From assembly GCA_041650335.1 (NCBI GenBank), contig JBAZLK010000002.1:124070-188069 (forward strand): a stretch of DNA of 64,000 nt, read 5' to 3'. This document shows positions 35,519-52,048 of this stretch, in pieces (position 1 is the stretch's first letter; each line of letters starts with the position of its first letter). The notes beneath the pieces were generated by a model, which searched no databases, was not told the origin of the DNA, and saw nothing but the letters and a program-made list of their open reading frames with translations. The DNA is from Patescibacteria group bacterium. Its GTDB lineage: Bacteria; Patescibacteriota; Patescibacteriia; JAHIZJ01. The position numbers and the translations under genes were made by a program.

Positions 35519-36256
35519 TTACATTATCGGGGTGACTGAATTCACTAAAGCATACATTAAGTCAATTTCATCTATGAGACTTTTTGCTGATTTTGGCGGC
35601 TCACCAGAAAGGCTATTAGTGTACGTCTGGAAATCTTGTCTTGAAATTCTAGTGTTTGATGAAAGTGACATAACCAGCGTTTTATCTGGGTCAGCGTTTT
35701 TTCTAAGAAAATATATCTTTGCAATAATTCCAATATCACTGTTCTCCGAAAGATAATCAGGAATATATTTATACGCTGTAAATCCGTTAAATTTGGTATT
35801 TACATCATTGATACTTTTACATTGAGCAAAATCGACCAAGCTTGTAAGATTGTTGCAAGATATATTCTTTAAATCACTAATAGCTGATAGTTCATTCAGC
35901 GTCGGAAATGATGTTTCAAAGGCACAACCGTTATTTAATCGATAGCTCAGCCAGAAAAAATTATTTTGAAGCGTATCGTGCGATAGATAGCCACACGTGA
36001 GATCGGAATCCCAGTCTGTTTTGTTATATTTGGTGAGATCCTGATCAGTGATGTTAAAAAGCGCCTTTGGCAACTTCAAGCTGACGCGAGCGTACGGTAG
36101 ATGAACCTCTTGACCATCGGTCGCAGGCTTGATCGTGACTAAATCGGGCAAGGTGCTTTTCTCGCTTTTTATGCCCTTAGCCAGCCAGAAGAAGCCGGCG
36201 GTAGCCAGTAAGAATAAACCGACCATCAATGAAATGAATAAGCCATTGCTTTTCAT
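35519..36256 (-). CDS. hypothetical secreted protein (AT-rich)
   Basis: Start reassigned to MKSNGLFISLMVGLFLLATAGFFWLA (signal anchor) at 36256. The upstream part of the track ORF overlaps the M23 gene terminator region. Confidence 0.5.
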   Translation of the reverse strand: MKSNGLFISLMVGLFLLATAGFFWLAKGIKSEKSTLPDLVTIKPATDGQEVHLPYARVSLKLPKALFNITDQDLTKYNKTDWDSDLTCGYLSHDTLQNNFFWLSYRLNNGCAFETSFPTLNELSAISDLKNISCNNLTSLVDFAQCKSINDVNTKFNGFTAYKYIPDYLSENSDIGIIAKIYFLRKNADPDKTLVMSLSSNTRISRQDFQTYTNSLSGEPPKSAKSLIDEIDLMYALVNSVTPIM

Positions 36257-36302
36257 GGGAGGGGGATTTAAAAAATGATTATTTCTAACCATATTATGGC
36301 AC

Positions 36303-36346
36303 GAAGAAAAAGGCCGGGGAAGGCAGTTAAAGATAATGCCTTCCCC
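36303..36346 (-). terminator. rho-independent terminator after the M23 peptidase gene
   Basis: Minus sense GGGGAAGGCAttatctttaacTGCCTTCCCC then GGCCTTTTTCTTCG. Confidence 0.65.
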
Positions 36347-36359
36347 GCGGACCCGAATC

Positions 36360-37016
36360 TTAGCAGAAAAAGAAGACAATACAGGCGTAATATTCAGAAT
36401 CACAGAGTGTTGGTATGACAGGATCTCCGTTGGCGTCGAAGTGATCGATGTTTTCGTACCCGACAAGATGAAGATGCGGACCCGAGGAGGTATTCCCAAT
36501 TCTGCCGAGGTACTGCCTGGCCGTGACATACTGTCCCTTCTGGACCGCCGTGGACTGGAGGTGCGCATAACGCAGGGCAACGTGCCGAGCAGGATCATAG
36601 ATCACTACCTGGAGTCCTTGGCCATAACCAGAACCAACTTTCACGACTGTTCCGTTGAACCCGGCGTATACCTTACGGCCAACTCCATGCTCATCCAAAG
36701 TTGTTCCGTCAATCCGGCTGATGTCGCGGGCATAGTAATCAGCCCCTTGATGCGAATTCATCGTTTGCCCGCAGGCATCGATGGTACCGCCTCCGGTCCT
36801 AATACCGCTCATTCCGCGCCAATCATCCGGATCCTCCCCTGGCCCAATCGGCGAAGCGATGCCCATATAGGCACCACGAACCATGGGCATTCCGCTCGAA
36901 AGATCGTCGCTGATCTCTTCGGGCGACGGGTTTGACACTGCCCCCTCCTTCGCGCATCCGACGAGAAACGACAGGGGGAGGGCGAGGATAAGGCAGAAAA
37001 AACTGAACCTCTTCAT
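36360..37016 (-). CDS. M23-family peptidoglycan metalloendopeptidase, lipoprotein
   Basis: Lipobox signal MKRFSFFCLILALPLSFLVGC. M23 motifs HxxxD-like region and HLHLVGYE (HxH). Confidence 0.8.
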   Translation of the reverse strand: MKRFSFFCLILALPLSFLVGCAKEGAVSNPSPEEISDDLSSGMPMVRGAYMGIASPIGPGEDPDDWRGMSGIRTGGGTIDACGQTMNSHQGADYYARDISRIDGTTLDEHGVGRKVYAGFNGTVVKVGSGYGQGLQVVIYDPARHVALRYAHLQSTAVQKGQYVTARQYLGRIGNTSSGPHLHLVGYENIDHFDANGDPVIPTLCDSEYYACIVFFFC

Positions 37017-37121
37017 TAGTTTGCCTCCATTTCAGAAATGCGGCCTCACTCCACTACAACAAGTAACGTGATTCTTCCAGCTCAGGTCTAGCTACCTCCT
37101 TTTTCTAGACCAGGGAAACGG

Positions 37122-37286
37122 GTTGTCGAAAGAACGGGCAATCATTACGGTCTCATACCCCTTTCAGATATGAAAAACCGGCCAATGCCCGTCGCGTTGG
37201 TTCTTGGTAAATAAATAAACGAGCCGTGAAAGCCCACCTCTCTTCACTTACAAAGTGCAAAATCAGTAAGACGCTGCTTATCCACC
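37122..37286 (-). repeat. conserved promoter plus leader element, copy A (upstream of M23 lipoprotein gene)
   Basis: Contains promoter module (rc GGTGGATAAGC ... GAAGAGAGGTGGGCTTTCACGGCTCG) and the ~95-nt leader module (rc CCAACGCGACGGGCATTGGCCGG...GATTGCCCGTTCTTTCGACAAC). Confidence 0.7.
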
Positions 37287-37342
37287 GATGGTCATTTTGA
37301 AGCTATCGCTGTGCTTGCATATTAATCTGTTTGCTCTTCGAA

Positions 37343-37945
37343 TTATTCGTTCACACTAATACTTTCAAGGATCGTGCTATACGTATCACGTACGTTTTCT
37401 AAGTCATCAGCGGTAAAAGTTGAGATTGATCCTGTTGGAGTCGATGGAGCGGTTTGTTCAATGTAGAAATTATACTTATCTCCTTGGTTGTCTTGAAATA
37501 TCGTGCTAATATACACACCAACACCGCTCAGCTTTTCAATACGATAACCTGGTAGTGAATGGAAGGTGATATTTTTAAGCGATGAACGATAGTCATCAGA
37601 TATTATCTGCTCCATATACGATTCTAGACTGGTGGCGTCTCGCGGTATGTTCTTGGTAAGATCATATTCCAGATCTCCAATGGCTGGATGCGTCATGATA
37701 GTAATTTGCCAGCTGGAACCACTAACTGTTTGTGGAACCATATCTGACCCTGTTGGAATACGTAATGTAACATTGTAATCTGTCAAAGTCTTCGTCTCGA
37801 AATCTGCGATGGTATAGTTATTTCTATTATTATTAATAATCGTAGCATTGTCATTTTGATTATTACGACCGTCGAGATAAAGCCACGCACCTACTGTGAT
37901 TGCAGCCATTATTACGACTGACCATAATACAACCTGTTTTTTCAT
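37343..37945 (-). CDS. hypothetical secreted protein (AT-rich)
   Basis: 200 aa with N-terminal signal anchor MKKQVVLWSVVIMAAITVGAWLY. No recognisable domain. Confidence 0.5.
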   Translation of the reverse strand: MKKQVVLWSVVIMAAITVGAWLYLDGRNNQNDNATIINNNRNNYTIADFETKTLTDYNVTLRIPTGSDMVPQTVSGSSWQITIMTHPAIGDLEYDLTKNIPRDATSLESYMEQIISDDYRSSLKNITFHSLPGYRIEKLSGVGVYISTIFQDNQGDKYNFYIEQTAPSTPTGSISTFTADDLENVRDTYSTILESISVNE

Positions 37946-38004
37946 TGTTTTTATAATAATAGTAATTTGTTAGAATAAGGGGAAGTTGGATTCCTCCCCC
38001 TAGT

Positions 38005-38625
38005 TTACCACACATTGTACTGTGAGAGGATATGACCCCACATCGGCAGAACGTGACGAGTAATCCTGTTGGATTCGATGAAATTTGAGTCGATCACATC
38101 CAGTCTTGTCGGATGTCCGACCCCATCCCTTTCCATAACCTGGAAAACGATGGCGGTATGAGGGATTCGTCCACCGGCATTTGATCGTTGAATGACCTGT
38201 CCGGGCCTCACCACGTTGATGCTTCGTGTCGCATAGGCATACCCGCTGGGCAGCGTGACTATCCCACCCGTCGCCCGTGAAACGATGGTGCTCCCAAACG
38301 ACTTACACTGCCCCCCGATGCCGACGCCAAGCCCACGATAATTCCAATCCCCCGCGAACCAGCAACCATCGTTACAGATAATCTCGTCCGAGGCACCCCA
38401 GTCGTTGTTGTTGTAGTGATCTCTCGAGAGAGCGTAGCAGATCTCACGATAGACTGCATACTCCCACTGCTCCGGAAGCTGTGATTGTGGTATTGGGAAA
38501 ATGCCGTTGGGCGGCCATTCCTCCTGTGACTCAGGTGATAACACACCTCCCCTCTTTCCGCAGCCAAGCAATAACCCTCCAGCAATTACCGGCAAGACCT
38601 TCAGAAAATCCCTGCGTGTGTTCAT
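38005..38625 (-). CDS. CHAP-domain-like peptidoglycan amidase/peptidase, Tat-type lipoprotein
   Basis: Start at MNTRRDFLKVLPVIAGGLLLGCG (RR motif plus lipobox). GGAGG SD. Cys/His pair GGQCKSFGSTIV ... PHTAIVFQV resembles the CHAP catalytic dyad. Confidence 0.5.
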   Translation of the reverse strand: MNTRRDFLKVLPVIAGGLLLGCGKRGGVLSPESQEEWPPNGIFPIPQSQLPEQWEYAVYREICYALSRDHYNNNDWGASDEIICNDGCWFAGDWNYRGLGVGIGGQCKSFGSTIVSRATGGIVTLPSGYAYATRSINVVRPGQVIQRSNAGGRIPHTAIVFQVMERDGVGHPTRLDVIDSNFIESNRITRHVLPMWGHILSQYNVW

Positions 38626-38650
38626 CCTCCTCTCCTTTTCTATTGGTAGT

Positions 38651-38752
38651 GTTGTCGAAAGAACGGGCAATCATTACGGTCTCATACCCCTTTCAGATAT
38701 GAAAAACCGGCCAATGCCCGTCGCGTTGGATCTCTTGGTAAAAAAATAAACG
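38651..38752 (-). repeat. conserved leader element, copy B (leader module only; about 25 nt upstream of the CHAP gene start)
   Basis: Near-identical to copies A and C across about 95 nt (gttgtcgaaagaacgggcaatcattacggtctcatacccctttcagatatgaaaaaccggccaatgcccgtcgcgttggatctcttggtaaaaaaataaacga). Confidence 0.7.
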
Positions 38753-38915
38753 AACTGACTTCAGTATAATTTATGGCTCTCGATTATCGACTGATACTAA
38801 TATATGGTTTCTATTGCAGTAATTGCCGTAGAAACCGCGGTCCGATCGCCTTGCTAGCTACCCCATCCGATTGGCCCAGTCTTTTTAGCGGACACACAAC
38901 CACTTCTTCGCTATA

Positions 38916-39557
38916 TTACTTAAGGCTCACCGATTCAGCAATCGTCATCAGCGTTTCTTCAGAAACGTCGTTTGAGATTAGTACCAGTATTTCGTTCGAG
39001 GTAATAAAATACAGGTATTGCCCAACCGCACCGCCAACCCCATTTCCCTGGTGGGTGAGTACAATTGTGTTTAGGCCGACGACGCGCGTTTCGTTTCTGA
39101 CAATAGTTTCACCAGGCATGTTCCGCTCAATCCACGGCGCCAGCCGACCCCATTGGTCAGATGAAATATTTTCATCGTTGGTATAAACTGCCAGGTGCAT
39201 GACGTCGTCCGCAAAGGTATTGAATCCATCGGGCGTATTACGGTTATGCCCCTCACTGGTGTTTTTATTTGTTCGAGAAAAACGAACCAATAAACTCTCT
39301 GTTTTAATTGGCGGCACGACCTGATAAGAAAACTCACTCGGCACGACAAGCGAAAAACCATAGCGAGCACTAATATACGCAGTCGTCTGTCCGGCGCTGT
39401 TTAACGGCCTAAATGCCGGATCGGCTTGCGTTTGACTGAGGCTAATTTGATCGGATGGTTCTGTTTTTGCCCGGCTGACCGCGAAAAGCCAGGCGCCAAG
39501 CACCACTGATAAAACCAGAATGACGGCAAAGGAAATGATGGTTGTTGGTTGTTTCAT
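38916..39557 (-). CDS. hypothetical signal-anchored protein
   Basis: 213 aa, N-terminal TM MKQPTTIISFAVILVLSVVLGAWLFAV. Confidence 0.5.
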   Translation of the reverse strand: MKQPTTIISFAVILVLSVVLGAWLFAVSRAKTEPSDQISLSQTQADPAFRPLNSAGQTTAYISARYGFSLVVPSEFSYQVVPPIKTESLLVRFSRTNKNTSEGHNRNTPDGFNTFADDVMHLAVYTNDENISSDQWGRLAPWIERNMPGETIVRNETRVVGLNTIVLTHQGNGVGGAVGQYLYFITSNEILVLISNDVSEETLMTIAESVSLK

Positions 39558-39639
39558 GGGTTGTATGCTTAATTATAGTTTATTTTATATCGTATCGTCA
39601 GAAAAGGGAAGTCGTTTTCACGGCTTCCAGGTAATCTCA

Positions 39640-40341
39640 CTATCGCCTGACTGGTACATATATCTTCCCCTGCGTAGCCCAGGAAGCCTCAAAGTCACTG
39701 ACCGAAATCTGTCTGTAACAGCCGTACGAGCTTCCCGGATCGTGTAGAATGACGTTTCCGTTCCAGCCAACTGCGAGAACCCAGTGTGCCGTTCCGCCGG
39801 AACTGACGATGCGGCCTTTTTTGATCATGACGCCGCAAATCACGGGATGTCCGTGCGCCACCTCGTTTATCACGTCATTGGCGCGATTGCCATAGTAGAC
39901 GGTGTAATGAAGTCCGTGGAATTCAGTCAGAAGGATGCCCAGGGCGTTTCGTCCGGAGAAGTTAGTGTACCATCCGTTGGGACTGTCGAAACGCGAATCA
40001 TCGAGGCGATCGGCTAAGAACTGATTTTCCGCGGTGATGACCCATGGTTCGACGTAGCCATTGTTAAAGTAGCCGCCCAGCATCACCCCGCAGGCCTGAC
40101 CGCAGTTCTTCGTGTTGTACTGATCGCCGGGCGGGAACTGGCGGAGCCAACGCATGTTGAGATGGAAACAGTAGCCAGGGTAGTCTGCCAGCAAACCGAC
40201 AATCGGTGCCAGTGAGTCCGGCAGCAACTGCTCTCCCGAGTGATCAACGGGTTCGGTTGATACGGCCTGCTCCTGCCCGCACCCCATAATTAACGTAAGG
40301 GGGAGAGCGAGAATAAGGCAGAAAAAACCGGAGCGTTTCAT
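39640..40341 (-). CDS. C39-like (papain-fold) cysteine peptidase domain lipoprotein
   Basis: Start at MKRSGFFCLILALPLTLIMGC (paralogous to the M23 signal peptide). Cys region NCGQACGVMLGGY and His region AHWVLAVGW resemble the Peptidase_C39-like catalytic dyad. Confidence 0.5.
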   Translation of the reverse strand: MKRSGFFCLILALPLTLIMGCGQEQAVSTEPVDHSGEQLLPDSLAPIVGLLADYPGYCFHLNMRWLRQFPPGDQYNTKNCGQACGVMLGGYFNNGYVEPWVITAENQFLADRLDDSRFDSPNGWYTNFSGRNALGILLTEFHGLHYTVYYGNRANDVINEVAHGHPVICGVMIKKGRIVSSGGTAHWVLAVGWNGNVILHDPGSSYGCYRQISVSDFEASWATQGKIYVPVRR

Positions 40342-40462
40342 TGGATTTACCTCCCTGTCGTACCGAACGACAGTGGTTGAGATGATGAGCAATAACACAC
40401 CCTGAAACCGAGACTCAACGCCTCCTTTTCCTCCTTTCTTAATAGAGACAGTAGCGATAGGT

Positions 40463-40638
40463 ATTGTCAAAAGAACGGGCAATCATTACGGTCTCATACC
40501 CCTTTCGGATATGCAAAACCGGCCAATGCCCGTCGCGTTGGATCTCTTGGTAAAAAAATAAACGAGCCGTGAAAGCCCGTCTTCTTTCTGCCTTTAGTAT
40601 GCGCCATCAATAATACCTGTCAATGTAGCTTATCCACC
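40463..40638 (-). repeat. conserved promoter plus leader element, copy C (upstream of C39-like lipoprotein gene)
   Basis: Has both modules. Promoter module rc GGTGGATAAgctacaTTGACA-17 nt-ATACTA then AGAAAGAAGACGGGCTTTCACGGCTCG; leader module as in copies A and B. Confidence 0.7.
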
Positions 40639-40662
40639 GACGGCTTTATGACGCGACGGCTG

Positions 40663-40698
40663 ATAAAAAAACGGACCACATGGTCCGTTTTATTTATT
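40663..40698. terminator. bidirectional rho-independent terminator
   Basis: AAAAAAACGGACCACATGGTCCGTTTTATTTATT. Confidence 0.7.
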
Positions 40699-40709
40699 AC
40701 TGCCTCGAC

Positions 40710-41336
40710 TTATTCGAGTTTTACGCTGTCAAAAATATCGCTCACCGTCTGACTCGCTTTGAGATAGGTAGCCGAGTCGGGATTTGGGTCAAATATTTCG
40801 GCTCGGATCTGCCAGATACCTGTTCCGGTCTGGATATAATAGGTGTGATATGAATCCGTGATCGGATTGCCCTGGAACCAAATCCATTGGCGGATGCCGA
40901 TATTCCCGTCGCGGTCATCCCGGGTACGGACTTTTTCGTTCGCTGTTTCGGATTTCGCATTGATAAAATCAGGCAATGAAAGATTTTCGGCGTTTGGCTC
41001 TTTGCTAATCGCCAGTCTGATAAGCGATTCAGTCACGTCTTGCTTCGAGAGCGGATCAGTGATGGTCGCCTGTTCAGTCGACTCAAGTTCGCCCACCGTC
41101 GTCGAGCCGTTTTCAGCCGAAATCGAAAGAAGCGTCAGATTTTTTGGGTACATGAAGGTAATTCCCTGCGCTTGGAACGTTTCGGTCAGCGGCGGCACTT
41201 CCGTATTTCTGTTTGTTTTCACAGAGCACATCGTGGTGGCGAAGCTCGGCACTGATTGCAAGCCATACATCACCGCCGCACCCCCGGTGAGCGCCGCCAG
41301 TAGAAAAATGACAAAGTACCAAAAATTTTTACGCAT
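40710..41336 (-). CDS. hypothetical secreted protein
   Basis: 208 aa with signal anchor MRKNFWYFVIFLLAALTGGAAVMYG. Confidence 0.5.
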   Translation of the reverse strand: MRKNFWYFVIFLLAALTGGAAVMYGLQSVPSFATTMCSVKTNRNTEVPPLTETFQAQGITFMYPKNLTLLSISAENGSTTVGELESTEQATITDPLSKQDVTESLIRLAISKEPNAENLSLPDFINAKSETANEKVRTRDDRDGNIGIRQWIWFQGNPITDSYHTYYIQTGTGIWQIRAEIFDPNPDSATYLKASQTVSDIFDSVKLE

Positions 41337-41528: not shown

Positions 41529-44270
41529 CTAACGGACCACGATCAGCCGGCGCTCGGATTGTTCGATGCCTGACCGGACGCGGCAGAAGTAGATGCCGCT
41601 CGCTACCCGCTGACCCTGATCGTCGCGGCCGTTCCAGATAATGGCCTGGGGTCCGGACGGCAGCTCGCCAGTGAACAGCGTCTGCACCCGCCGGCCGGAT
41701 ACGTCGTAGATCTCGACAGCCACCGGTTTCGCCTGGTTAAGGGTGAAGGAGATAGTCGTCGAGGGGTTGAGGGGATTCGGCGTGGCGGATAGCGTCTTGG
41801 CCATGCTGGCCGACGCCGACTGCCGCCACTGGACGCTGATGTCCCTCAGCCAGACTGAACCAGCGTCCTGGCCGAGGTAGAAGATGAGCTTCGCGGCCGG
41901 GTCGGTGACTTCCGGCCAGAACGGCAGGACGATCGGCTGATCGGCCGAGGCCAGAGTGAGATTGACGCCTTGCCACAGCGGCTTGGCACCGTTCGAACAC
42001 TCGATCACAGCCGTGATCGCGCACGGCGGATTAGCCGCGCCGGTAAAAACGAGCTCGCACGCGCTTCCGGCCTGCGTGTAAACCCAGTCCTGCGTGAGAG
42101 AAAGCTCGTGCCACTGCCGGGCATGGTCCACGCTCACTCTGAGAGTGTGATCGTCCTGGACCACCGGCACCAGCCAGTCGAGACCGGCCGGCTTGGTGAA
42201 TTGCCAGCAGTCAAGGCCGCGGGTGAAGCTGCCGTTGCTGATGAAGCTGCCCGGATCATCCTCGCCCGTGCAGGTTGGAGGTGGCGGGGGTGGTGGAGGC
42301 GGCGGACTGTCGTCAGACACGAGCCGGATATTGCGGATCCGGAACATGCTTCCGCCGGTCTCGCCGAACGCCCAGGTCAGCTTCGCCGTTGAAGCAGTCC
42401 TGGTAACGGTGATGGGAAAACGGTGCTCTTCCCAGCCGCCCGGCGACTGGCGATAATCCTGCCACAAACCGCAGTTGACGTACTGGCCGTTCACCTGCAC
42501 GGTCAGACCGAGCATAGTGTGGACGGTCCGCACGCTCTGCTGTTCATAGCTCAGGATCAGCTTCTCGCCGGCCGTGATCCGGGGCAGGGTTTGTGACAGC
42601 TGGACGCTCCAGATGTCGGCATTCCCGTGCATGACGAATTCGGCCATGGGCGTCGCCAGATTAATGTCGCAGTGCTCGGTCGGCCAGATCGGCGTTTCCC
42701 AGCAGTCGAGACAGCTCTCGAAGCTTCCGTTTGCGATAAGGTTGTCAGGAGAACGATAGCACTCGTCTGCCCCAGCCTTGGCCATCTTGTTCTCGTCCAC
42801 GCACCGGCTCAAGTCGATCTCGGAAACGGAATGTCCGTCCGTCTCTAAACGCCAGTGCTTGCCGCTTCGATGTTCGTAGAAGTCCTGGGTAATTTTACCG
42901 TCCATCTCGAACTGATCGGTGGTCGGATACCCAAACCTGTCTACGTCGCCGTGGCTTTCGAAATACGCCAGGATATTCCTGTCGTAGACGCAGTGGGCTT
43001 CAGCCGTACAGGAGTTATGGATAGCGCCGGCCGGATCATAGAAGATGATTGCCTTGGACCCGTCCGGACGCCTGAAGTCCTGAACGTCATAGCCGTCCCA
43101 GTTGTGGACCCGAGCCGTGCCGCTTCCGCCTGGAATAGCATGACCCAGATTCTGGGAGCCGCCGTTCCGGTTGTAGCACTCGGCAAAGAGATAGCTTGAT
43201 TCTGGGTGCCAGCCATTTTCGTAGTAGCCGGGGGCGCAGTTGGGATACCAGGCGAAATGCGGCAGACCATTGGCCCAGAGCATCACACCGTCCGTGCACT
43301 CCTGGATAGCGGAGATGCCGTCAAGCCGCGTAACGGCGTTCTCTTTGTAGTTTTGCTTGTAGTAACTTCGGAGATTCGATGGTACGTTGCTCTCGTCCCG
43401 GATCGGCATCTTGGCCGGGCATCTCGGGCCGCCACGCTGCGTCCAGAAAGTCCATAGGCCTGAATGCAAGACAATCGCGGCTCTGGCTCCTCCCAGCGCA
43501 TCGTAAACGATGGCGTTATCGCCGAAGAACCCGCCGTTGAAGTGCCAGATAGCGCAATTCTTCGGCATGCCCCGAGCGTCGTAGAGATCATTCGGATCCC
43601 AGGCGTAGTACCAGGGATGGCTGGAATTAGCCCGACGGGCTGCGTCCAAATCCCACATCTGATACTCAGGGTAACCAATCATGGCCGAGCCGTAGCGACT
43701 GTAAGCCTGGTCAAACAGGGCGGTGTTGCGGGAAACAACAATACTGCCATAGATAGGATTTCCACCGTCCGAAAAGCTTGATGAGATCGACTGGCCGTTT
43801 GGGTTGTCGCCTTGTTGTCGCTGATAATGGAGATGCGCGTTGTATCTTCCATCGGCATCACCCATCAAGCCGATTACCTGGCCAGCTTTTACCTCTTCAC
43901 CAGGCTTGACGAACAACTTCTCTAGATGTCCATTCAAACCCTCATCTTCTTCCGCGCCCTTGTAGCGAATAACCGCGCAGTTACCCCAATCGTCTTGGCC
44001 AGGTCGGTAATCCTGGGCATAAACAACCACTCCATCTTCAGTTGCGACGATGGGATAACCAATGTTTCGCTCCCTATAAAGTCCATTAACACAGAAATCC
44101 CACGCGAACTCAAGCTTGCTGCCTCGAAGATGGGTTGGGGTATCAGCGTTTCCTTGCCCACAAACCAATACAGTGCCACCGATGACGGGGAGATTCTGTT
44201 CAGCTACTGACGCGGATGAATACACAAAACCAAGCACCAAAAACAACCCCAGGATCGATGCTGACTTCAT
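41529..44270 (-). CDS. large secreted multidomain protein: N-terminal M23 peptidase domain, central beta-rich region, poly-Pro linker, C-terminal Por/FlgD-Ig-like sorting-type tail
   Basis: Signal peptide MKSASILGLFLVLGFVYSSASVA. M23 motifs (GTVLVCGQGN..., HLHYQ). An 11xPro run. The last ~85 aa, SATPNPLNPSTTISFTLNQAKPVAVEIYDVSGRRVQTLFTGELPSGPQAIIWNGRDDQGQRVASGIYFCRVRSG..., match the T9SS/FlgD-like C-terminal domain pattern. Confidence 0.7.
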   Translation of the reverse strand: MKSASILGLFLVLGFVYSSASVAEQNLPVIGGTVLVCGQGNADTPTHLRGSKLEFAWDFCVNGLYRERNIGYPIVATEDGVVVYAQDYRPGQDDWGNCAVIRYKGAEEDEGLNGHLEKLFVKPGEEVKAGQVIGLMGDADGRYNAHLHYQRQQGDNPNGQSISSSFSDGGNPIYGSIVVSRNTALFDQAYSRYGSAMIGYPEYQMWDLDAARRANSSHPWYYAWDPNDLYDARGMPKNCAIWHFNGGFFGDNAIVYDALGGARAAIVLHSGLWTFWTQRGGPRCPAKMPIRDESNVPSNLRSYYKQNYKENAVTRLDGISAIQECTDGVMLWANGLPHFAWYPNCAPGYYENGWHPESSYLFAECYNRNGGSQNLGHAIPGGSGTARVHNWDGYDVQDFRRPDGSKAIIFYDPAGAIHNSCTAEAHCVYDRNILAYFESHGDVDRFGYPTTDQFEMDGKITQDFYEHRSGKHWRLETDGHSVSEIDLSRCVDENKMAKAGADECYRSPDNLIANGSFESCLDCWETPIWPTEHCDINLATPMAEFVMHGNADIWSVQLSQTLPRITAGEKLILSYEQQSVRTVHTMLGLTVQVNGQYVNCGLWQDYRQSPGGWEEHRFPITVTRTASTAKLTWAFGETGGSMFRIRNIRLVSDDSPPPPPPPPPPTCTGEDDPGSFISNGSFTRGLDCWQFTKPAGLDWLVPVVQDDHTLRVSVDHARQWHELSLTQDWVYTQAGSACELVFTGAANPPCAITAVIECSNGAKPLWQGVNLTLASADQPIVLPFWPEVTDPAAKLIFYLGQDAGSVWLRDISVQWRQSASASMAKTLSATPNPLNPSTTISFTLNQAKPVAVEIYDVSGRRVQTLFTGELPSGPQAIIWNGRDDQGQRVASGIYFCRVRSGIEQSERRLIVVR

Positions 44271-44405: not shown

Positions 44406-45563
44406 TTACTCAGCTTTCAGGCTAAACATAATAGTATTAAACACATCGAGCATATCGTAATCAAACCAGGCCCCGAGTGAAATATTTATCAGATTTTCAT
44501 TCAGCTGGATATATGCTTCACGATGTATAGCATTTCCGGCATATTCATATTGGTATGCCTTCCCGCTTAGCGGTTGAGGAAGGTCGATTAGCTGATCATT
44601 AATACCCTTATCTCTTATCCATTTTTCCAGATCATTTGGTTTCGTTTTTTCCCATGAAATCGCAAATATGGGAGTTTCTGTCTCTCTATCAATATATTCT
44701 TTTTTTGTGATGTATAACGTATTTCCCTCCTGGTTTCTAATACCGTAATCAGAGGGATAAAGGAAAAAAAAGCCAAGCTCGCTATTCGTATACTTCTGCC
44801 AATTTGCCGTATCCAGTTTTGTACTCAGATCAAAGGCCATGTTGTTTGTAAATTCCAGACTTCGAGCGATCTGGTCGGCGGTATTGAGCAGGTTTTCATC
44901 GCCAGACAACACGACCGCTGAAAGTTCTAACACCTGTTGATTGTGTTTTATATAGTAGTTTGTTATTTTACCATCTAGCCATTCTGTATCGACTTGAACT
45001 TTCGGTGTTTTTCCGGTCGTGATTTTTTCGATTATGGCATCGTTACCGTCAATTGCCGTTTGCTCCGTTGTGACATCAAAATATATATCTCTGCGATTAA
45101 CTTTTAAATATTCGTCAAACCACCCTGTTAAACTTAAACTTGATATCTTGTAGACATGAACATCAACATTAATCTCACCCTTTTGAGGATGGTATACGTC
45201 TAGATTTTCAGAATAATTTTGAATGTATGCCGTTTGAATTCCTTGTGTTACTAATTGCACTTCTTCATCATTATCAATTTGGACAAGTTGCCACTCTTTC
45301 GGAAATTTCAATCTATAACTATATTTATCGTTTGTGTATATGTTCCAACCCGTCACCGGATCAATCGTAATGTTAACGTTGGTGTTCTGATTTGTTGTAT
45401 TTGTGTTTGCATTACCATTCACATTGCTATTGATATTCTGATTTGAATTAGTATTGATTTTTTTGTTAAATCCCCACCACACTGCGCCTCCAGCCAAGAT
45501 GATAACAATAACAATCAAGACAATGGCGATTGCAGAGACTCCTTTGTTGTTAAATTTCTTCAT
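44406..45563 (-). CDS. hypothetical membrane-anchored protein with Asn-rich low-complexity region (AT-rich)
   Basis: 385 aa. TM MKKFNNKGVSAIAIVLIVIVIILAGGAVWW, then NTNSNQNINSNVNGNANTNTTNQNTN. Confidence 0.5.
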   Translation of the reverse strand: MKKFNNKGVSAIAIVLIVIVIILAGGAVWWGFNKKINTNSNQNINSNVNGNANTNTTNQNTNVNITIDPVTGWNIYTNDKYSYRLKFPKEWQLVQIDNDEEVQLVTQGIQTAYIQNYSENLDVYHPQKGEINVDVHVYKISSLSLTGWFDEYLKVNRRDIYFDVTTEQTAIDGNDAIIEKITTGKTPKVQVDTEWLDGKITNYYIKHNQQVLELSAVVLSGDENLLNTADQIARSLEFTNNMAFDLSTKLDTANWQKYTNSELGFFFLYPSDYGIRNQEGNTLYITKKEYIDRETETPIFAISWEKTKPNDLEKWIRDKGINDQLIDLPQPLSGKAYQYEYAGNAIHREAYIQLNENLINISLGAWFDYDMLDVFNTIMFSLKAE

Positions 45564-45800: not shown

Positions 45801-48572
45801 TTATTCTACCGGCAGAGTAAATATAAACGTGCTCCCCTTGCCCAAACCTTCGCTCTCGACCCAGATCTGTCCGCCGTGGGCGTCGACGATGCGCTTGGCA
45901 ATATAGAGACCGAGACCGGACCCGTCCGGCTGGACTTGGGCGATGCCCTCCCCGCGGACAAACTTCGTGAACAGCCGCTTGGCGTCATCCGGCGGGATAC
46001 CGCGGCCCGTGTCCTTCACGGAAACGCTGATATTGCCGTTGATCTTCTGAACCGAAACCGTGACGCTGCCCTGCGGTGTGTATTTTATCGCGTTATCGAC
46101 GAGATTCAAAATGACGTCTTTCAATTTATCCGAATCAACCATCAGGGCGGGCAGTTTTTTGGCCGGCTTTTTGTATTCCAGCTTGAGGCCTTTTTCCTCA
46201 GCCACCTTGATGATTTCGATCAATTCGGTCTGGATCAGTTCTTCGATTTGCGCCGGTTTCTTATCGAGTACGAATTTACCCGCCTCGATCTTCGTAATAT
46301 TGAGGAATAAATTTACCATCCGGACCATGCGCTTGCTCGCATCCAGCACTTGTTTCAAAATATTCAGTTTTTCTTCGTCAATCTTTCCGAAATCGCCGTC
46401 CACCAGCATGGACAGCCAGCCCTGGATGCCGGTCAGCGGGGTGCGCAATTGGTGCGAGGCGATGGAGATAAACTCGTTCTTCGCCTCGTCGAGCTGTTTC
46501 AAATGATCGTTCGCCTTGGCCAGCTCGGTATTCGTCAGCCGTAGCTCCTCGACCAACTTCAGATTCCTAGTGACAATACCCATCTGATCGGCCAGCGACT
46601 CCATCATCTGGATCTCGTCCTCAGATACTTCTTTCTTGGATTTTTGGATGACAAACACGATCGATCCGATGATCTCCTTTTCCGAGAAAATCGGCGCGGC
46701 CACGATCGTCTTCGCGCCCACGAGCTTTTGCATAGCATAGCAGATCGGCTTTGGAATCGGCGGGGACAGGAAATCAGATAGCGATTCGCTGATCTGGATA
46801 TTTCCCGTGCGGATTGCCTCCGTCGCCAGATCCTTATCCGCCATCGTGCCGCTGTATTGTTCGAGCTGTTTGGGCAGGAGTTTGACCGCGGCTTGAGTGA
46901 TTTTTGTCATCGTGATGGCCACCGGATGCGTTTTTTCACCTTCTCCGCGTAAAATAATAACCCCCCCGATGTACCCCAGCTCATTGGCGATGCCGTCAAC
47001 GATCGCCTGGGTAACCTTCTTGAAGTCGAGCGACCGAGTGATGATATTGCCGATACTCTGGAGAGCGTTCAAGTAGACATTCCGGTTCTTTAGCTCCACG
47101 TTGGCCATCTGAAGATCGGCCGTGGCGTGCTCGACCTCAACCTTCAGCTTTTCACTGAATGATTTTACCTCGTCATAGAGCCGCGACTTCTCGATCGCCG
47201 ACCCCATGAGCGGGCTCAAGACTTCGAGCAGTTTCAGGTCGTTTCCGCTATAGACATCGCCGGATCGCTTCTGGCCCAGCACATAGAGGCCAGTCACCTC
47301 GCCCTCGAGCATGATCGGCGCGATCACTGCCGCGCCCGTGGCTTTTACCTCAGCTAGTGATTTCTCGAGCTGTTTGCGCTCGCGTTCATCGGCCGTATCG
47401 GAGATTTTTCGCTCAAGCTCTTCGAGGACAACCACTTTTTCGGTTTTTTGAACGTATTTGGCGACCGAGCCATTCGCATCGACGCGCGTATTATTACCGT
47501 TACCGTTGTTATTTCTACGCTTGCTGTATGACTGTTTGTTTTTCGTGAGCAATAATATGTCCGCATATTTGATTTTCAGAATACTGGCGAGCTTCCACTC
47601 CACTGACGACAGCAGATCATCGAGCTCGATCTTCACACTGACCATTTCGGTCAGTATCTGGGTGGCTTCGGTATAGTCCACCTCGCCTTTGAAGAATATT
47701 GCATCGGTAATTTTTGCCAGTAAACGCTTCAACGGATCAAAACCGAAAACTATTACAAGCGAGACAAGGATAGTCGCGAGAAACCCCGACCCGCCAAGCT
47801 CTTGGATAAAAAGACCGGTCAGAAACGTAGCTGAAGTGAAAGCAAACGTAGTAAAAAGAATGAGAAAGAAATAGATAATGGAGCGAGATATAACCACCCT
47901 AATATCAAACAATCTGTGTTTGACGATTGCATAGGCGGTAATAATCGCATAAATGAAAACAAAATAATTACCAACAGGATAAATATTTAATCTAAAATCT
48001 AGTAAAAAATTTGTAGATCCACCAACAAATCCAATCAATGACGCGACAAACATGTATAATAACTGTTGTGATCTGAGACCAAGAGCTTTTTTATATTCAA
48101 TATATATATTTCTGATACTCCAAAAAACGACTGCAACAAAATATATAAGAAATGTTGGGTATATGCTTCCAGTTTTTACCGGCCAATAGCCAAAATATGT
48201 CCTGGGACTCACTTGCTCGATAAACAATTTAGAAAAAACGAGAATCGAAAATATTACCGAAATGACATACAAAAAAATAGTAATATACAAGTATTTCTTT
48301 TTTGTCCTGCCGGTTAATACAACGCTATAACGAAAAAATACGGCGGGTAATAACGCAGTACCAATATACAACAACCTTTGCCAAATCAATGCCTGATCAG
48401 AGTTATTAGCAATGACGGTACCGAATAAACCTATAGTCCATATTGAAGTTACACAACTGACAAGAAACCATATTTGATTTAATTCTTTCTTCCTATTTCC
48501 AAATAAAACAAACAGTCCTAGTGCAACAGTTAATATCGCGGTTAAAAGACAGGTATACGCAAAAGTGTTCAT
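45801..48572 (-). CDS. sensor histidine kinase with N-terminal 7TM sensor module and GAF domains
   Basis: 923 aa. The first ~300 aa are multi-TM. H-box FISIASHQLRTPLTGIQGWLSML, N/G boxes (NLVDNAIKYT, DTGRGI, GSGLGLYI). Confidence 0.8.
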   Translation of the reverse strand: MNTFAYTCLLTAILTVALGLFVLFGNRKKELNQIWFLVSCVTSIWTIGLFGTVIANNSDQALIWQRLLYIGTALLPAVFFRYSVVLTGRTKKKYLYITIFLYVISVIFSILVFSKLFIEQVSPRTYFGYWPVKTGSIYPTFLIYFVAVVFWSIRNIYIEYKKALGLRSQQLLYMFVASLIGFVGGSTNFLLDFRLNIYPVGNYFVFIYAIITAYAIVKHRLFDIRVVISRSIIYFFLILFTTFAFTSATFLTGLFIQELGGSGFLATILVSLVIVFGFDPLKRLLAKITDAIFFKGEVDYTEATQILTEMVSVKIELDDLLSSVEWKLASILKIKYADILLLTKNKQSYSKRRNNNGNGNNTRVDANGSVAKYVQKTEKVVVLEELERKISDTADERERKQLEKSLAEVKATGAAVIAPIMLEGEVTGLYVLGQKRSGDVYSGNDLKLLEVLSPLMGSAIEKSRLYDEVKSFSEKLKVEVEHATADLQMANVELKNRNVYLNALQSIGNIITRSLDFKKVTQAIVDGIANELGYIGGVIILRGEGEKTHPVAITMTKITQAAVKLLPKQLEQYSGTMADKDLATEAIRTGNIQISESLSDFLSPPIPKPICYAMQKLVGAKTIVAAPIFSEKEIIGSIVFVIQKSKKEVSEDEIQMMESLADQMGIVTRNLKLVEELRLTNTELAKANDHLKQLDEAKNEFISIASHQLRTPLTGIQGWLSMLVDGDFGKIDEEKLNILKQVLDASKRMVRMVNLFLNITKIEAGKFVLDKKPAQIEELIQTELIEIIKVAEEKGLKLEYKKPAKKLPALMVDSDKLKDVILNLVDNAIKYTPQGSVTVSVQKINGNISVSVKDTGRGIPPDDAKRLFTKFVRGEGIAQVQPDGSGLGLYIAKRIVDAHGGQIWVESEGLGKGSTFIFTLPVE

Positions 48573-49216
48573 TGTATTGTATTCTGTTTTTCCACTAAAT
48601 TGACAATCTTTTTGGCTATTTGTCGTTTTCCTTTAATAAAAATGATATTATTGGCATGGTCTAATATAAATGCCTCGTGAACCCCTCTAACTCTTTTATA
48701 TTCGTTTGCCACCATGAAATCGGCGCGTGACTCCGCCATACTTTTGGACGCGATCTGAATTAATTGTTTTGATGTTTTGTTTACTTCCAACTTGAACTTA
48801 ACAAGAATGGTACTGGGGGTAATTTTTTTAATATAATTTACTATTTTTTTTGTTGGCTTCAGTTTCAAAAATATCGTTTTCTTGCCACTTTTTATTTTCC
48901 CACTATATTTTTTTGATAACTGATAATCGGATATTGCGGCGGAATGAAATATTGCGTCGTATTTATTTTCTTTAATTTCTTTAATGAATATCCGAAACAA
49001 TTCATCATAATAGTGAAATTTTATTAATCTAACTTTAATAGATCTAAGTTTATGATCACAAACTCTTCCTGGTCCTAACATCAGTGTAACCTTGTGTCCT
49101 CTTCTGCTAGCGATTTTTGCTATTTCAAAACCAAGATTACCTGCAAAAACATTCGTAATTACTCTTACTTTATCGATGGGAACCCAAACTGGACCGGCGG
49201 TCACTAATACTCTCAT
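48569..49216 (-). CDS. coaB: phosphopantothenate--cysteine ligase-like (CoaB domain)
   Basis: MRVLVTAGPVWVPIDKVRVITNVFAGNLGFEIAKIASRRGHKVTL matches the CoaB pattern VLVTSGGT.EPID.VRFI.N.SSG. Confidence 0.55.
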   Translation of the reverse strand: MRVLVTAGPVWVPIDKVRVITNVFAGNLGFEIAKIASRRGHKVTLMLGPGRVCDHKLRSIKVRLIKFHYYDELFRIFIKEIKENKYDAIFHSAAISDYQLSKKYSGKIKSGKKTIFLKLKPTKKIVNYIKKITPSTILVKFKLEVNKTSKQLIQIASKSMAESRADFMVANEYKRVRGVHEAFILDHANNIIFIKGKRQIAKKIVNLVEKQNTIQ

Positions 49217-50012
49217 TTTTTACTATATAATTATTTTTTACTTTTTTATACCATTTCCATGGAGTCCTAAACAAATTGTATTTTACGTATAGTGATAAAT
49301 GATTTTGTTTAAACCATTTGATAAACTCTTTATCAATATCTTCTCTACTTCTTATTTGATGTCCCCTTTTCCTGAGAAAATCGATATAGATATTACCTAT
49401 TGGAAAGATAAAATGTTTAGTAATATATCTCGGTTTTTTCTCTAGTTGATAATCAATATTATCCAAAGGCTCACTCATGCTAATAATGTGCTTTTCATTT
49501 ATTGGATGCACTGCATCATGTTCCCCATCCCATATAATCAAATCTGTGAGATTATCAATATGTTTTGTCTTCAATGAAAGTTCTGTATCCGTTGATGGGT
49601 CGCATTTTATCCAGCGATTATCTATATATACAAAGCAAACTATATGCACCGATGAACTACTAATACTTTCCTTGATAAAAGAAGGAAGAATATGCCCAAA
49701 AGATTCCCCGCCAATTACCTTATATATACAATATCCGCTCGGTATACCTGCAGCTCTAAAAAGCGCAACAAGTAAATTTGTACTAGTGGTACACATGCCC
49801 GTCTGACTCTCCATAGTTTCAGAAGCTCTCTTACTCCATGCGCCAACCCTGTATTTAATATTATCCCTTACATATTCAAAAAGTGCTATCGCAAGATCCT
49901 TATCATTCTGATTGACCTTTTTATAACTTTTAACAAAATCTATAATATTGTGATTATCATAATCACAATATTTTGTAACAGCTAAATACTTTTGCTTATT
50001 TATTTTTTCCAT
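49170..50012 (-). CDS. transglutaminase-like cysteine protease superfamily protein
   Basis: Core GMCTTSTNLLVALFRAAGIPSGY (catalytic Cys), then His/Asp region (SFGHIL...VYIDNRWIKCDPS). Overlaps coaB by 47 nt and coaC by 13 nt. Confidence 0.55.
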   Translation of the reverse strand: MEKINKQKYLAVTKYCDYDNHNIIDFVKSYKKVNQNDKDLAIALFEYVRDNIKYRVGAWSKRASETMESQTGMCTTSTNLLVALFRAAGIPSGYCIYKVIGGESFGHILPSFIKESISSSSVHIVCFVYIDNRWIKCDPSTDTELSLKTKHIDNLTDLIIWDGEHDAVHPINEKHIISMSEPLDNIDYQLEKKPRYITKHFIFPIGNIYIDFLRKRGHQIRSREDIDKEFIKWFKQNHLSLYVKYNLFRTPWKWYKKVKNNYIVKNESISDRRSSLGSHR

Positions 50013-50578
50013 TGCTTTAATAATTTTTCGATGTTATTTTGAAGGACATCATTTCCAATTAGCGCTCCTTCACCCTCATAACCGCATGCTAATTTTCCTT
50101 TGATCGGTCCAACGATGCTATATTTATCCAAGTTGCCTATTTTAATATTTCTCAATTTGCTAATATTTGACTGGATTATTTCATTTTCCCACATATGACA
50201 ATTCATAGCGGGCGCAATAAGTACTGGCGTTTTTTTCGGGAGTGCGCACATTACTGTTGTAAGTAAATTATCAGCTATTCCACATGATAATTTACTTATT
50301 GTATTTGCAGTCGCCGGTGCTAATACAAAAATGTCGCACCAATCAGCTAAATGTATGTGCTCAACAACGGTTTTATCGTGCGTTTCAAAGGTATCTAAAT
50401 ATACTTGCGAATTAGACAATGTCTGTATAGTTACCAGTGAAATCAATTGCGTGGCAGCCGCCGACATAATAACTTTAACAGTTGCCCCTGAAGCCTTTAG
50501 TCTATTTATTAAACTACACATTCTATAAGCACCAATACATCCAGTAATTCCTAATAATATCTTTTTGTTCTTTAACAT
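50000..50578 (-). CDS. coaC: phosphopantothenoylcysteine decarboxylase-like flavoprotein (CoaC domain)
   Basis: KKILLGITGCIGAYRMCSLINRLKASGATVKVIMS... and PAMNCHMWEN match the HFCD flavoprotein family. Confidence 0.6.
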   Translation of the reverse strand: MLKNKKILLGITGCIGAYRMCSLINRLKASGATVKVIMSAAATQLISLVTIQTLSNSQVYLDTFETHDKTVVEHIHLADWCDIFVLAPATANTISKLSCGIADNLLTTVMCALPKKTPVLIAPAMNCHMWENEIIQSNISKLRNIKIGNLDKYSIVGPIKGKLACGYEGEGALIGNDVLQNNIEKLLKQWKK

Positions 50579-50640
50579 ACCATTTAATTAAATTATTATA
50601 TATTAAAATTCTTTATAAAACATATAGGACAAAGATCCAA

Positions 50641-51324
50641 CTACTTCTTCAATACTATCACTGCAATCATAACCGCCACGACACCGGCAAATAGCGGAGA
50701 ATATGCCATGTTAATTGATAAATCAAAAAGGGGGAAGATGCGATCCATAACCACGCCAACTAAACCGCTAATACCAATTATTATAGTAACGGCGGTTACC
50801 TGTTTTTTTAGTTGCACCGAGACAATGTTTATTTTTTTTATTAACAAATATAGTGATAACAACAAATATATCAACGATACTATGAAGAGCGCCCAGAACG
50901 CATTACCTGGTTTAATATCGATAAATCCTTCATTTACATTAACATCATTAATGAAGCTTGGCTGTAATATTATTGCTGGCAAGACAATAAATATTGATCC
51001 AAATATTACCAATCGGCGAACAAGAGGATCCATATTTGTCGGCAACGGATAATACATTGCCAATGCAAGGAGACTTACGAAACTGGCCGTACCAGAGTAG
51101 AATGCTGCCCTGGCAATAATCAACTTTGACATTTCTGTATTCGAAGTCATGAGAAGTCCAACAAAGAAGGACATTAGTGAAAAACCAAAAAGCATAGCGC
51201 AGAGCGCATAGATAGACTGAGTTTTTTGATATCGAAAATAAATATACAATGCGAGAATCAATTCTAATATGGAAAGAGACCAAAGAATTATTGTATTTGC
51301 TTCAGTAATGATACTCATTTTCAT
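50641..51324 (-). CDS. hypothetical polytopic membrane protein
   Basis: 227 aa, about 6-7 TM, AT-rich. Confidence 0.45.
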   Translation of the reverse strand: MKMSIITEANTIILWSLSILELILALYIYFRYQKTQSIYALCAMLFGFSLMSFFVGLLMTSNTEMSKLIIARAAFYSGTASFVSLLALAMYYPLPTNMDPLVRRLVIFGSIFIVLPAIILQPSFINDVNVNEGFIDIKPGNAFWALFIVSLIYLLLSLYLLIKKINIVSVQLKKQVTAVTIIIGISGLVGVVMDRIFPLFDLSINMAYSPLFAGVVAVMIAVIVLKK

Positions 51325-51642
51325 ACCGCTTTTTTCTTAAATAGAATAGGTGTAAGAAACTTAATTGTTACCGATTCACAAAAAGCATATAAAAAAGCCA
51401 GCGCAAAAAGCAAGCCAGCTTCAATAAGTAAAATGTAGTTTTGTATCTGCATCCTTGTCTACTATGAAAAATTAGGATTCCAGTCGGATGCCTTTTAGTT
51501 ACAGAGATATTATACAAAAATCTGCGGAAAAGTCAAATCTGAAATAATTACACTAAATATGACACGATGCACATAAAAATGTGCGATAAATGGTCTATTT
51601 GTGTGAATATATCGAAGTACTCACTTTTGTTACATTTCGTTG

Positions 51643-51996
51643 TCATCCTGAACTTGCTTCAGGATCTCCATACCACTTTTCCGCTAGGTCAATATAATTT
51701 GGATTCTGCTTTTGAATCAAATTCATTTTCCACACCCGATGCCAATTCTTCAATTGTTTTTCTCTCGTGATAGCCGCACAGATGTCATCGGTTTCTTCAT
51801 AATACAATAATTTGGTCAGATTATATCTCGCACTGAAACCCCTAACTAAATGATTCTTGTGTTCATACATCCTCCGTATTAAATCATTAGTCACACCGAT
51901 GTAAAGCGTTGTGTAGAGAGTGTTGGATATAATATAGACATAATAGGTTTTCATAAATTCTATGTTGATTATGAGATGCTGAAACAAGTTCAGCAT
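51643..51996 (-). CDS. GIY-YIG nuclease family protein
   Basis: YYVYIISNTLYTTLYIGVTNDLIRRMYEHKN is a canonical GIY-(10-11)-YIG plus Arg/Glu region. 117 aa. Confidence 0.7.
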   Translation of the reverse strand: MLNLFQHLIINIEFMKTYYVYIISNTLYTTLYIGVTNDLIRRMYEHKNHLVRGFSARYNLTKLLYYEETDDICAAITREKQLKNWHRVWKMNLIQKQNPNYIDLAEKWYGDPEASSG

Positions 51997-52048
51997 GACA
52001 ATAAAATAAAAAACAGGGTTTATGTCTCCCTGCTTTCTTTTATCTTTT

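Follow-up and report, generated by a model that had tools for sequence, protein, structure and literature searches.

The stretch of DNA analysed here, referred to throughout as the window, comprises 64,000 nucleotides from a Patescibacteria group bacterium (GenBank assembly GCA_041650335.1, contig JBAZLK010000002.1, positions 124,070–188,069) and carries at 41529..44270 on the minus strand an open reading frame (ORF) of 913 amino acids (aa) that begins with ATG and is predicted to encode a secreted modular peptidoglycan hydrolase. The ORF is real and intact. Its exact protein is on record for a 368,560-bp contig of the metagenome assembly ENA ERZ27247363, the identical protein being named by NCBI peptidoglycan DD-metalloendopeptidase from a metagenome-assembled genome (MAG) of "Patescibacteria group bacterium". 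The fusion is not an assembly artefact, since it is found again in a relative sampled elsewhere, where the genes to either side are syntenic as well. A first-pass annotation made from the nucleotide sequence had placed the ORF correctly and had its domain order right, as judged by profile searches and the translation. Three features go beyond it, namely the LGFP-like nature of the central region, the repeat modules that flank the proline run, and a conserved two-gene cassette of which the hydrolase gene forms one half.

The hydrolase, its modules and its partner

All features of the protein are given in window positions and lie on the minus strand. Residues 1–23 (MKSASILGLFLVLGFVYSSASVA; 44202..44270), which are followed by EQ, start basic, continue with a hydrophobic stretch of about 14 residues, have a small-x-small cleavage motif, lack a lipobox Cys, and by eye read as a type-I Sec signal peptide, as had been claimed. 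They are followed by an M23 zinc endopeptidase head (residues 24–175; 43746..44201), in which Peptidase_M23 (PF01551) matches residues 67–155 with 52.9 bits (cut-off 28.7) and in which all of the zinc ligands and catalytic positions (H47, D58, H115, H146 and H148) occur, each being conserved when the family is aligned. A PDB search by sequence gave lysostaphin, ShyA and LytM among its relatives; for example, HLHYQR of the head aligns with HLHFQR of lysostaphin.

The central module (residues 176–510; 42741..43745) defines the family and is a putative cell-wall-binding domain related in appearance to LGFP repeats. The enrichment in Trp, Tyr and Cys noted for this region at first pass exists but is modest (Tyr 7.0%, Trp 3.3%, Cys 2.7%). 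The Pfam profile LGFP (PF08310) is not matched by the 913-aa protein even at E ≤ 1 and is matched by just 2 of 28 relatives, and a PDB search by sequence returned zero relatives of the module. The likeness lies in the fold, which resembles that of the solved LGFP domain of PS1 from Corynebacterium.

Two repeat modules follow, module A (residues 511–655, starting with LIANGSFESCLDCW; 42306..42740) and module B (residues 666–825, FISNGSFTRGLDCW; 41796..42275), separated by a linker of ten Pro (residues 656–665; 42276..42305). The linker had been counted as 11 Pro, and the domain behind it had been described as a further one of ~200 aa; it is ~160 aa long and repeats, in diverged form, the module that precedes the linker. 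Indeed, A and B are homologous over their full length (~25% identity over ~175 aa, E 3e-9, linked via the copy in the syntenic relative L009), and both open with (L/F)I(A/S)NGSFxxxLDCW. The repeat occurs twice in the window protein, three times in L009 and no fewer than three times in P0003. A fold like that of families 4 and 9 of the carbohydrate-binding modules (CBM), a beta-sandwich, is likely, though weakly supported, for these repeats: CBM_4_9 is matched strongly by one relative (E 7.7e-24, Pfam on 28 members), a CBM match in Pfam is absent from the 913-aa protein itself, and a low-confidence model of residues 509–913, built without an alignment, gave matches to CBM4, CBM16 and CBM61 in a Foldseek search that was mostly noise.

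The protein ends with a tail of 88 aa (residues 826–913; 41532..41795), which is predicted to be of the beta-sandwich type shared by FlgD Ig-like domains and by the type-A C-terminal domains (CTDs) of proteins exported via a type IX secretion system (T9SS). The first-pass description of the tail as T9SS/FlgD-like holds up in the profile search: the tail passes TIGR04183 (33.2 bits, cut-off 23) and FlgD_ig (PF13860; 43.7 bits, cut-off 27) and just misses PF18962 (25.3 bits, cut-off 27). It can be aligned end to end with 16 other CTDs and carries the motifs TPNPLNPST (PNPxNP type) and SGIYFCRV (GxYF) as well as a terminal LIVVR with a basic last residue, at the extreme C-terminus. In the PDB sequence search the tail found FlgD Ig-like domains (7eh9, 7bhq) and the CTD of Porphyromonas gingivalis PorZ, the latter match spanning the whole tail (E 5.6e-3). 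In a single-sequence AlphaFold2 model the tail forms seven strands with a pLDDT of 79–90, the rest of residues 509–913 being poor, and locally it is matched by Foldseek to PorZ (5m11, 32% identity), PorU and FlgD, with the whole model matching poorly. The FlgD_ig match is due to the close relationship between the FlgD_ig and type-A CTD families. The FlgD equivalog of NCBIfam scores 29 bits where 230 are required, with the Ig-like part alone matching; the FlgD N-terminal domain is absent from the protein, and flagellar genes are absent from the annotations of the window. A word-indexed database search with the tail alone returned 26 short fragments. At the level of the sequence family we class the tail as a type-A CTD.

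Directly upstream of the hydrolase gene lies a gene for a 385-aa partner protein (44406..45563, minus strand), in which a membrane anchor at the N-terminus and an Asn-rich linker precede one or two weak PsbP/PsbP_2-like domains. The PsbP_2 match of the partner (26.6 bits) is slightly under the cut-off of 27; PsbP or PsbP_2 is matched by four of eight partner homologues, and a PDB search by sequence gave zero relatives. The pairing itself is conserved: of 21 loci, 19 have a partner homologue directly upstream in the same orientation, among them all of the 15 that bear a tail, and in L011, in L013 and on the contig of P0149 and P0154 the pair or the hydrolase gene is present in tandem. Among three close relatives the partner (24–41% identity) and the head (35–39%) have diverged much faster than the central module (64–82%). 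Co-diversification of partner and head throughout the family finds no support, the rank correlation of their divergence over all loci being rho 0.00. PADLOC gave zero matches for the hydrolase, the partner and the downstream gene.

Upstream of the partner follows a histidine kinase with the Pfam domain order HisKA_7TM-GAF-HisKA-HATPase (45801..48572, minus strand). It is a conserved neighbour, for the window, L009, L003 and L024 all have a GAF/HisKA kinase upstream of their family gene, and its link to the cassette is positional. The region with kinase and cassette is preceded in L003 (1-1029) and L024 (3513-5625) by genes for a FeeM/autoinducer-synthase-like N-acyltransferase and a ThiF-like protein, and this may be a conserved signalling neighbourhood. 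Downstream of the hydrolase gene the window contains a run of small secreted or anchored proteins (35519-41336, minus strand), among them a second M23 protein, which is short (218 aa, 36360-37016), and one with Peptidase_C39_2 (39640-40482). Just past the end of the window (L008, 5363-7479) a paralogous set of M23 (196 aa) and C39_2 (237 aa) proteins is encoded.

Distribution, host lineage and genomic setting

The family defined by the central module is rare. Among 1.84 billion cluster representatives there are 128 members at E ≤ 1e-3 and 40 at E ≤ 1e-10, and a scan of GTDB species representatives, with an alignment of a 10-sequence subset as query, gave 14 loci among ~186,000 species, 9 of the 14 with the tail. 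At least 33 of 130 members checked end in a CTD, which is always found at the extreme C-terminus. Pfam searches of 28 members yielded M23 in 24, Por_Secre_tail in 17, FlgD_ig in 11 and a CHAP head in three, with variable middle modules (FG-GAP, LGFP and, in one case, CBM_4_9). Relatives were found neither in the viral contigs of IMG/VR nor in the plasmids of PLSDB, and the proposal of a phage lysin or a plasmid gene is thus unsupported.

Tail-bearing copies named Patescibacteria, Parcubacteria or Kerfeldbacteria are those of the window, L010, L012, L013, L015/P0202, L021, L024/P0188, L025/P0166, P0149 and P0154, to which L009 is added on account of its synteny and despite its label "Gammaproteobacteria". 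Three further tail-bearing copies carry labels (KSB1, Zixibacteria, Ignavibacteria) of the type of the Fibrobacterota-Chlorobiota-Bacteroidota (FCB) superphylum. The architecture had at first been called unusual for the lineage; in one sense this is wrong, head, central module and tail recurring in many Patescibacteria, at conserved sites and under purifying selection. The literature searched yielded nothing relevant on T9SS-type CTDs in Patescibacteria or the candidate phyla radiation, and this setting of the domain appears to be new, the combination of M23 and type-A CTD as such being already ordinary in FCB bacteria. As to labels, the records of both L009 and L019 are titled 'uncultured Gammaproteobacteria bacterium'; L009 is syntenic with the window over 10 kb, L019 shares the style of the anchored-partner gene with the window, and both titles look wrong.

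The host is a member of the Patescibacteria. All named top relatives of LepA encoded in the window belong to this group (Uhrbacteria, Kerfeldbacteria, Komeilibacteria, Magasanikbacteria, Parcubacteria group), and these are groups of GTDB class ABY1. The 64 kb around the gene consist of Patescibacteria-like genes in the same orientation and have the content of a reduced genome. Over window positions 1-64000 nearly all likely genes of at least 150 aa lie on the minus strand, and a match to bacterial RNase P class A RNA (21454-22015, minus strand) is 562 nt long where the model has 367 positions, which implies large insertions.

In the ~81 kb of contig positions 249,952–331,068, precomputed Pfam matches include zero T9SS families, and NCBIfam gave zero T9SS matches for 10 unannotated proteins. 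A hidden Markov model made from 17 CTDs found in the same ~81 kb no CTD-bearing ORF besides the window gene. Organisms with a T9SS usually encode many CTD proteins. It has further been proposed that Patescibacteria have no outer membrane (PMC12102498), and the T9SS is restricted to the FCB superphylum (PMC11205867). Because of the Patescibacteria host, the lack of T9SS genes in the ~81 kb and a phylum described without an outer membrane, a T9SS export route for the 913-aa protein is very unlikely, and the Bacteroidota-type secretion route to which the tail had seemed to point is not borne out. This does not mean that nothing speaks for a genuine T9SS cargo, whose contig would belong to, or be chimeric with, that of an FCB-type diderm, or whose host would be a Patescibacterium with a T9SS: the tail passes TIGR04183, keeps the PNPxNP, GxYF and terminal basic motifs and aligns with the PorZ CTD, and the Sec signal is as in T9SS cargo. 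However, LepA, the Patescibacteria-like surroundings over 64 kb, the synteny with L009 on both sides, and a single CTD protein next to zero T9SS families, in a phylum to which neither outer membrane nor T9SS is ascribed, make this explanation extremely improbable.

The Patescibacteria copies occupy conserved chromosomal contexts. The copies in L002 and L009, two loci that were obtained from other samples and share 99.6% identity, lie between the same neighbours as the window gene; the kinase neighbour is 80% identical in L009 and the downstream gene 95% (93% for the partial L002 copy). In two distant Patescibacteria (L024, L025) that share downstream ferredoxin and NiFe-hydrogenase genes at 40–49% identity, one and the same chromosomal site holds a cassette with a CHAP head in one case and with an M23 head in the other. 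Heads also differ within a site between close relatives: the head of the window protein is only 30% identical to that of L002, versus 78–91% for the remaining segments, and to judge from these identities the M23 head, too, has been exchanged.

A different setting is seen in the three FCB-labelled copies and the unlabelled L004, which are all located in mobile-element-like islands (L004, L017, L023, L026). Each of the four islands has a large serine recombinase (25–41% identical among them) and a RuvC-like gene, together with a variable content of a LexA or other helix-turn-helix regulator, restriction-modification genes, genes of the cyclic-oligonucleotide-based signalling system CBASS and Gabija-like genes. 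The labels of the host phylum differ among the islands.

Since M23 enzymes commonly remodel the wall of their own cell, the protein might be a housekeeping autolysin or cell-division hydrolase like LytM, its extra domains serving to position it on the cell's own sacculus. In line with this are the partial NCBIfam matches of the protein to ShyA, MepM, EnvC and DipM, the resemblance of the LGFP-like module to the self-wall-binding domain of Corynebacterium PS1, and the chromosomal stability of the cassette. The rarity of the family (128 clusters, 14 GTDB species) is, however, not that of a core function, and the exchange of heads between M23 subtypes and CHAP, the variable middles and the copies on mobile islands are accessory, conflict-type traits, so that we regard an autolysin as distinctly unlikely.

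Mobile islands bring to mind also the wall-opening hydrolases of conjugation and type IV secretion systems (T4SS), such as VirB1, PrgK and CwlT, encoded on integrative elements. Hydrolases of monoderm T4SS use CHAP or M23 domains, and a monoderm-type T4SS is almost universal in Patescibacteria (PMC12102498); moreover, the cassette of L023 is accompanied by a relaxase, a TraG/TrwB-like coupling protein, ArdC, an integrase and a serine recombinase, and that of L026 by a DUF87/TrwB ATPase and a serine recombinase. In the ~81 kb around the window gene and at L003, L024 and L025, however, there are zero T4SS, relaxase or recombinase genes, relatives are lacking in PLSDB plasmids, and the protein combines a cleavable signal (by-eye reading) with modules of carbohydrate-binding type, whereas a membrane anchor is typical of T4SS hydrolases. 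A role in a T4SS is therefore very improbable.

Selection, composition and the role of the tail

The tail is under purifying selection in Patescibacteria. Between the window gene and L002 (rate of synonymous substitution, dS, ~0.66) the ratio of nonsynonymous to synonymous rates (dN/dS) is 0.09 for the central module, 0.11–0.13 for the repeats and 0.17–0.19 for the tail. In the tails of distant Patescibacteria copies the synonymous sites are saturated (proportion of synonymous differences, pS, 0.62–0.92) and yet the proportion of nonsynonymous differences (pN) is only 0.19–0.30, from which it follows that the tail has long been retained under constraint. All tail-bearing ORFs read were intact through the tail, the low-coverage L002 being the exception: at positions 3893-3895 (3x coverage) it has an in-frame TAG, where L009 has Lys in an intact ORF of 1064 aa. 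In view of the 99.6% identity of the two, neither recoding nor a pseudogene was accepted as the explanation; most likely the TAG reflects a sequencing error, given the 3x coverage, or a nonsense mutation at the level of the strain.

Tails are of several types. Nine of the family are 53–74% identical to each other and come close to the consensus NYPNPFNP...ETKKMLLLK, which is characteristic of FCB phyla other than Bacteroidota. The tail of the window and L009 is of a different type, 24–39% identical to these nine, and that of L013 is of a third. Along the window gene the G+C content at third codon positions (GC3) rises from 0.50 in the M23 head to 0.70 in the central module and to 0.81–0.83 in the repeats and the tail (0.83 in module B), whereas the remaining genes of the window have a mean of 0.54 and a maximum of 0.75. 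This would fit a 3' end of the gene that was replaced, prior to the split between the lineages of the window and L009, by DNA from a source richer in GC. It should be noted, however, that composition alone is weak evidence, because at nearly every locus the family gene is GC3-richer than its surroundings. A horizontal origin, which had been raised on the strength of the tail, is thus supported in part, by the sharing of the family with FCB-labelled MAGs in mobile islands, by the minority tail type and by the tail GC3 of 0.81.

Composition varies elsewhere in the window, too. At 48000-53500 there is an island of low GC (0.32–0.38; GC3 0.27–0.37) with separate CoaC-like (Flavoprotein) and CoaB-like (DFP) genes, a transglutaminase-core gene that lies between and overlaps both, a GIY-YIG gene and two HisKA_7TM paralogues. 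At 59347-61478 (minus strand) a fusion of NTP_transf_3 and NDK adjoins an APH-family kinase gene, and the two, a second outlier in composition, have the highest whole-gene GC3 in the window (0.72–0.75).

These data bear on the possibility of a tail without function, left over from a horizontal transfer in which a T9SS-bearing FCB bacterium, where the protein was ordinary T9SS cargo, had supplied the cassette or the 3' end of it. The occurrence of the family in MAGs labelled KSB1, Zixibacteria or Ignavibacteria, in each case within a mobile-element-like island, the GC3 of the 3' modules and tail above that of every other window gene, the aberrant tail of window and L009, which suggests that a 3' end was replaced, and a rough neighbour-joining tree in which FCB- and Patescibacteria-labelled members are interspersed are all in accord with such an import. 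But a useless appendage of 88 aa should have decayed, and instead the ORFs are intact, the dN/dS of the tail is well below 1 between two syntenic Patescibacteria loci, distant tails are still 53–74% identical in protein after saturation of synonymous changes, and the cassette sits at the same chromosomal site where the flanking genes are just 40–49% identical. A vestigial tail is thus in our opinion unlikely, if less so than any of the alternatives discussed above.

We consider it probable, at roughly 60%, that the protein is a Sec-exported, wall-targeted lytic enzyme whose CTD-type tail has a T9SS-independent role. The M23 head would cut peptidoglycan cross-links outside the cell; the LGFP-like module, and probably also the two CBM-like modules, would hold the enzyme on a cell-wall polymer; and the tail would be a binding or tethering domain acting independently of a T9SS, either on the producer's own surface or on the target wall. 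For the tail such a domain is the most likely assignment, because neither an outer membrane nor a T9SS is ascribed to the lineage and yet the tail is kept under purifying selection. The anchored, extracytoplasmic PsbP-like protein may be a docking or self-protection partner. The cassette evolves by module exchange, heads being M23 subtypes or CHAP, middles being CBM-like, FG-GAP or discoidin-like and tails being of differing types, and it resides at stable chromosomal sites in Patescibacteria as well as on recombinase-bearing mobile islands. Its use would be the lysis or local opening of the wall of another bacterium, either a host or a competitor. A role outside housekeeping is indicated because the family is rare, because its heads are swapped and mobile islands carry it, and because a host-dependent lifestyle has been proposed for Patescibacteria (PMC12102498). 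The vestigial tail, the autolysin, the T4SS hydrolase and the T9SS cargo are all less well supported.

There are several points that weigh against this interpretation. The tail retains the sequence motifs of functional T9SS CTDs, as would be expected if it still served a T9SS somewhere, and the tails of most family members are near the FCB consensus. The check for T9SS genes covered ~81 kb of a 368-kb contig, a single contig of the MAG, and the organism labels derive from MAG binning and are wrong in at least one case (L009). In the head the spacing from H to D is 10 residues (H-x10-D) as compared with the canonical HxxxD, which is nearer the long spacing of LasA-type M23A enzymes, and the head is predicted from alignment to be enzymatically active. 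An enzyme-immunity relation of head and partner is a hypothesis that has the rho of 0.00 against it.

A more far-reaching version can be formulated, to which we assign a low probability: the type-A CTD fold would have a second, T9SS-independent function in monoderm Patescibacteria, as a conserved C-terminal signal or tether that positions swappable lytic enzymes and is recognised by some component of the producer's surface or by the envelope of a T9SS-bearing FCB host. If this were true, the domain would not be diagnostic of type IX secretion, and Patescibacteria would have a surface-sorting or host-targeting route that has not been described. Even apart from this version, a type-A CTD is taken to indicate type IX secretion and the FCB superphylum, and here it is conserved, at stable chromosomal sites, in a phylum thought to be without outer membrane or T9SS. 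Either the CTD has another function or lytic cassettes pass unexpectedly between Patescibacteria and FCB bacteria. This aspect should be borne in mind when annotations are read, since labels such as "T9SS type A sorting domain-containing", given by NCBI to P0188 and P0202, imply in Patescibacteria a mode of secretion that these bacteria probably lack. With its anchored PsbP-like protein and a wall-targeted hydrolase of exchangeable M23 and CHAP heads, the cassette moreover offers a concrete candidate for the means by which ultra-small, probably host-dependent bacteria could open the walls of other cells.

Comparison with known systems

Effector-immunity and polymorphic toxin cassettes resemble the present one in being tight two-gene units with an exchangeable head on a constant scaffold, in their location in mobile or defence islands, and in the fast evolution of head and partner among close relatives. 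They differ from it in that the partner in the window lies upstream rather than downstream, does not match known immunity families or anything in PADLOC, and does not diverge in step with the head over all loci.

For the single modules, other comparisons are closer. With the Ig-like domain of the hook-cap protein FlgD (PF13860) the tail shares a score above the FlgD_ig threshold and the matched structures 7eh9 and 7bhq, but it stands at the extreme C-terminus with end motifs specific for CTDs and without hook-cap context, flagellar genes being absent nearby. The LGFP domain of Corynebacterium glutamicum PS1/mycoloyltransferase A (6swz, 6sx4) differs from the central module in that the two are only 12–14% identical with a high global root-mean-square deviation, so that the arrangement of the repeats is different; moreover, the module of the window protein is found on a hydrolase and in a different phylum, and the Pfam LGFP profile is not matched.

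Metallopeptidases are a major class of TIGR04183 proteins (PMC11205867), and the T9SS metallopeptidases of FCB bacteria have the same plan as the window protein: a Sec signal, an N-terminal catalytic domain, variable beta-sandwich middles and a C-terminal type-A CTD of 80–90 aa with the same motifs. In contrast to these, the window protein belongs to a Patescibacterium, a T9SS went undetected in the ~81 kb around its gene, and the phylum is described without an outer membrane; the pairing with an anchored PsbP-like gene also sets it apart, nothing of the kind having been described for T9SS cargo. Finally, M23 enzymes of the lysostaphin, LytM and LasA type are likewise secreted with a head that has the H, D, H and HxH positions, followed by a wall-targeting domain, and lysostaphin is among the best PDB matches of the head; where these enzymes have SH3b, however, the window protein has an LGFP-like module and CBM-like repeats, and it carries a CTD in addition.

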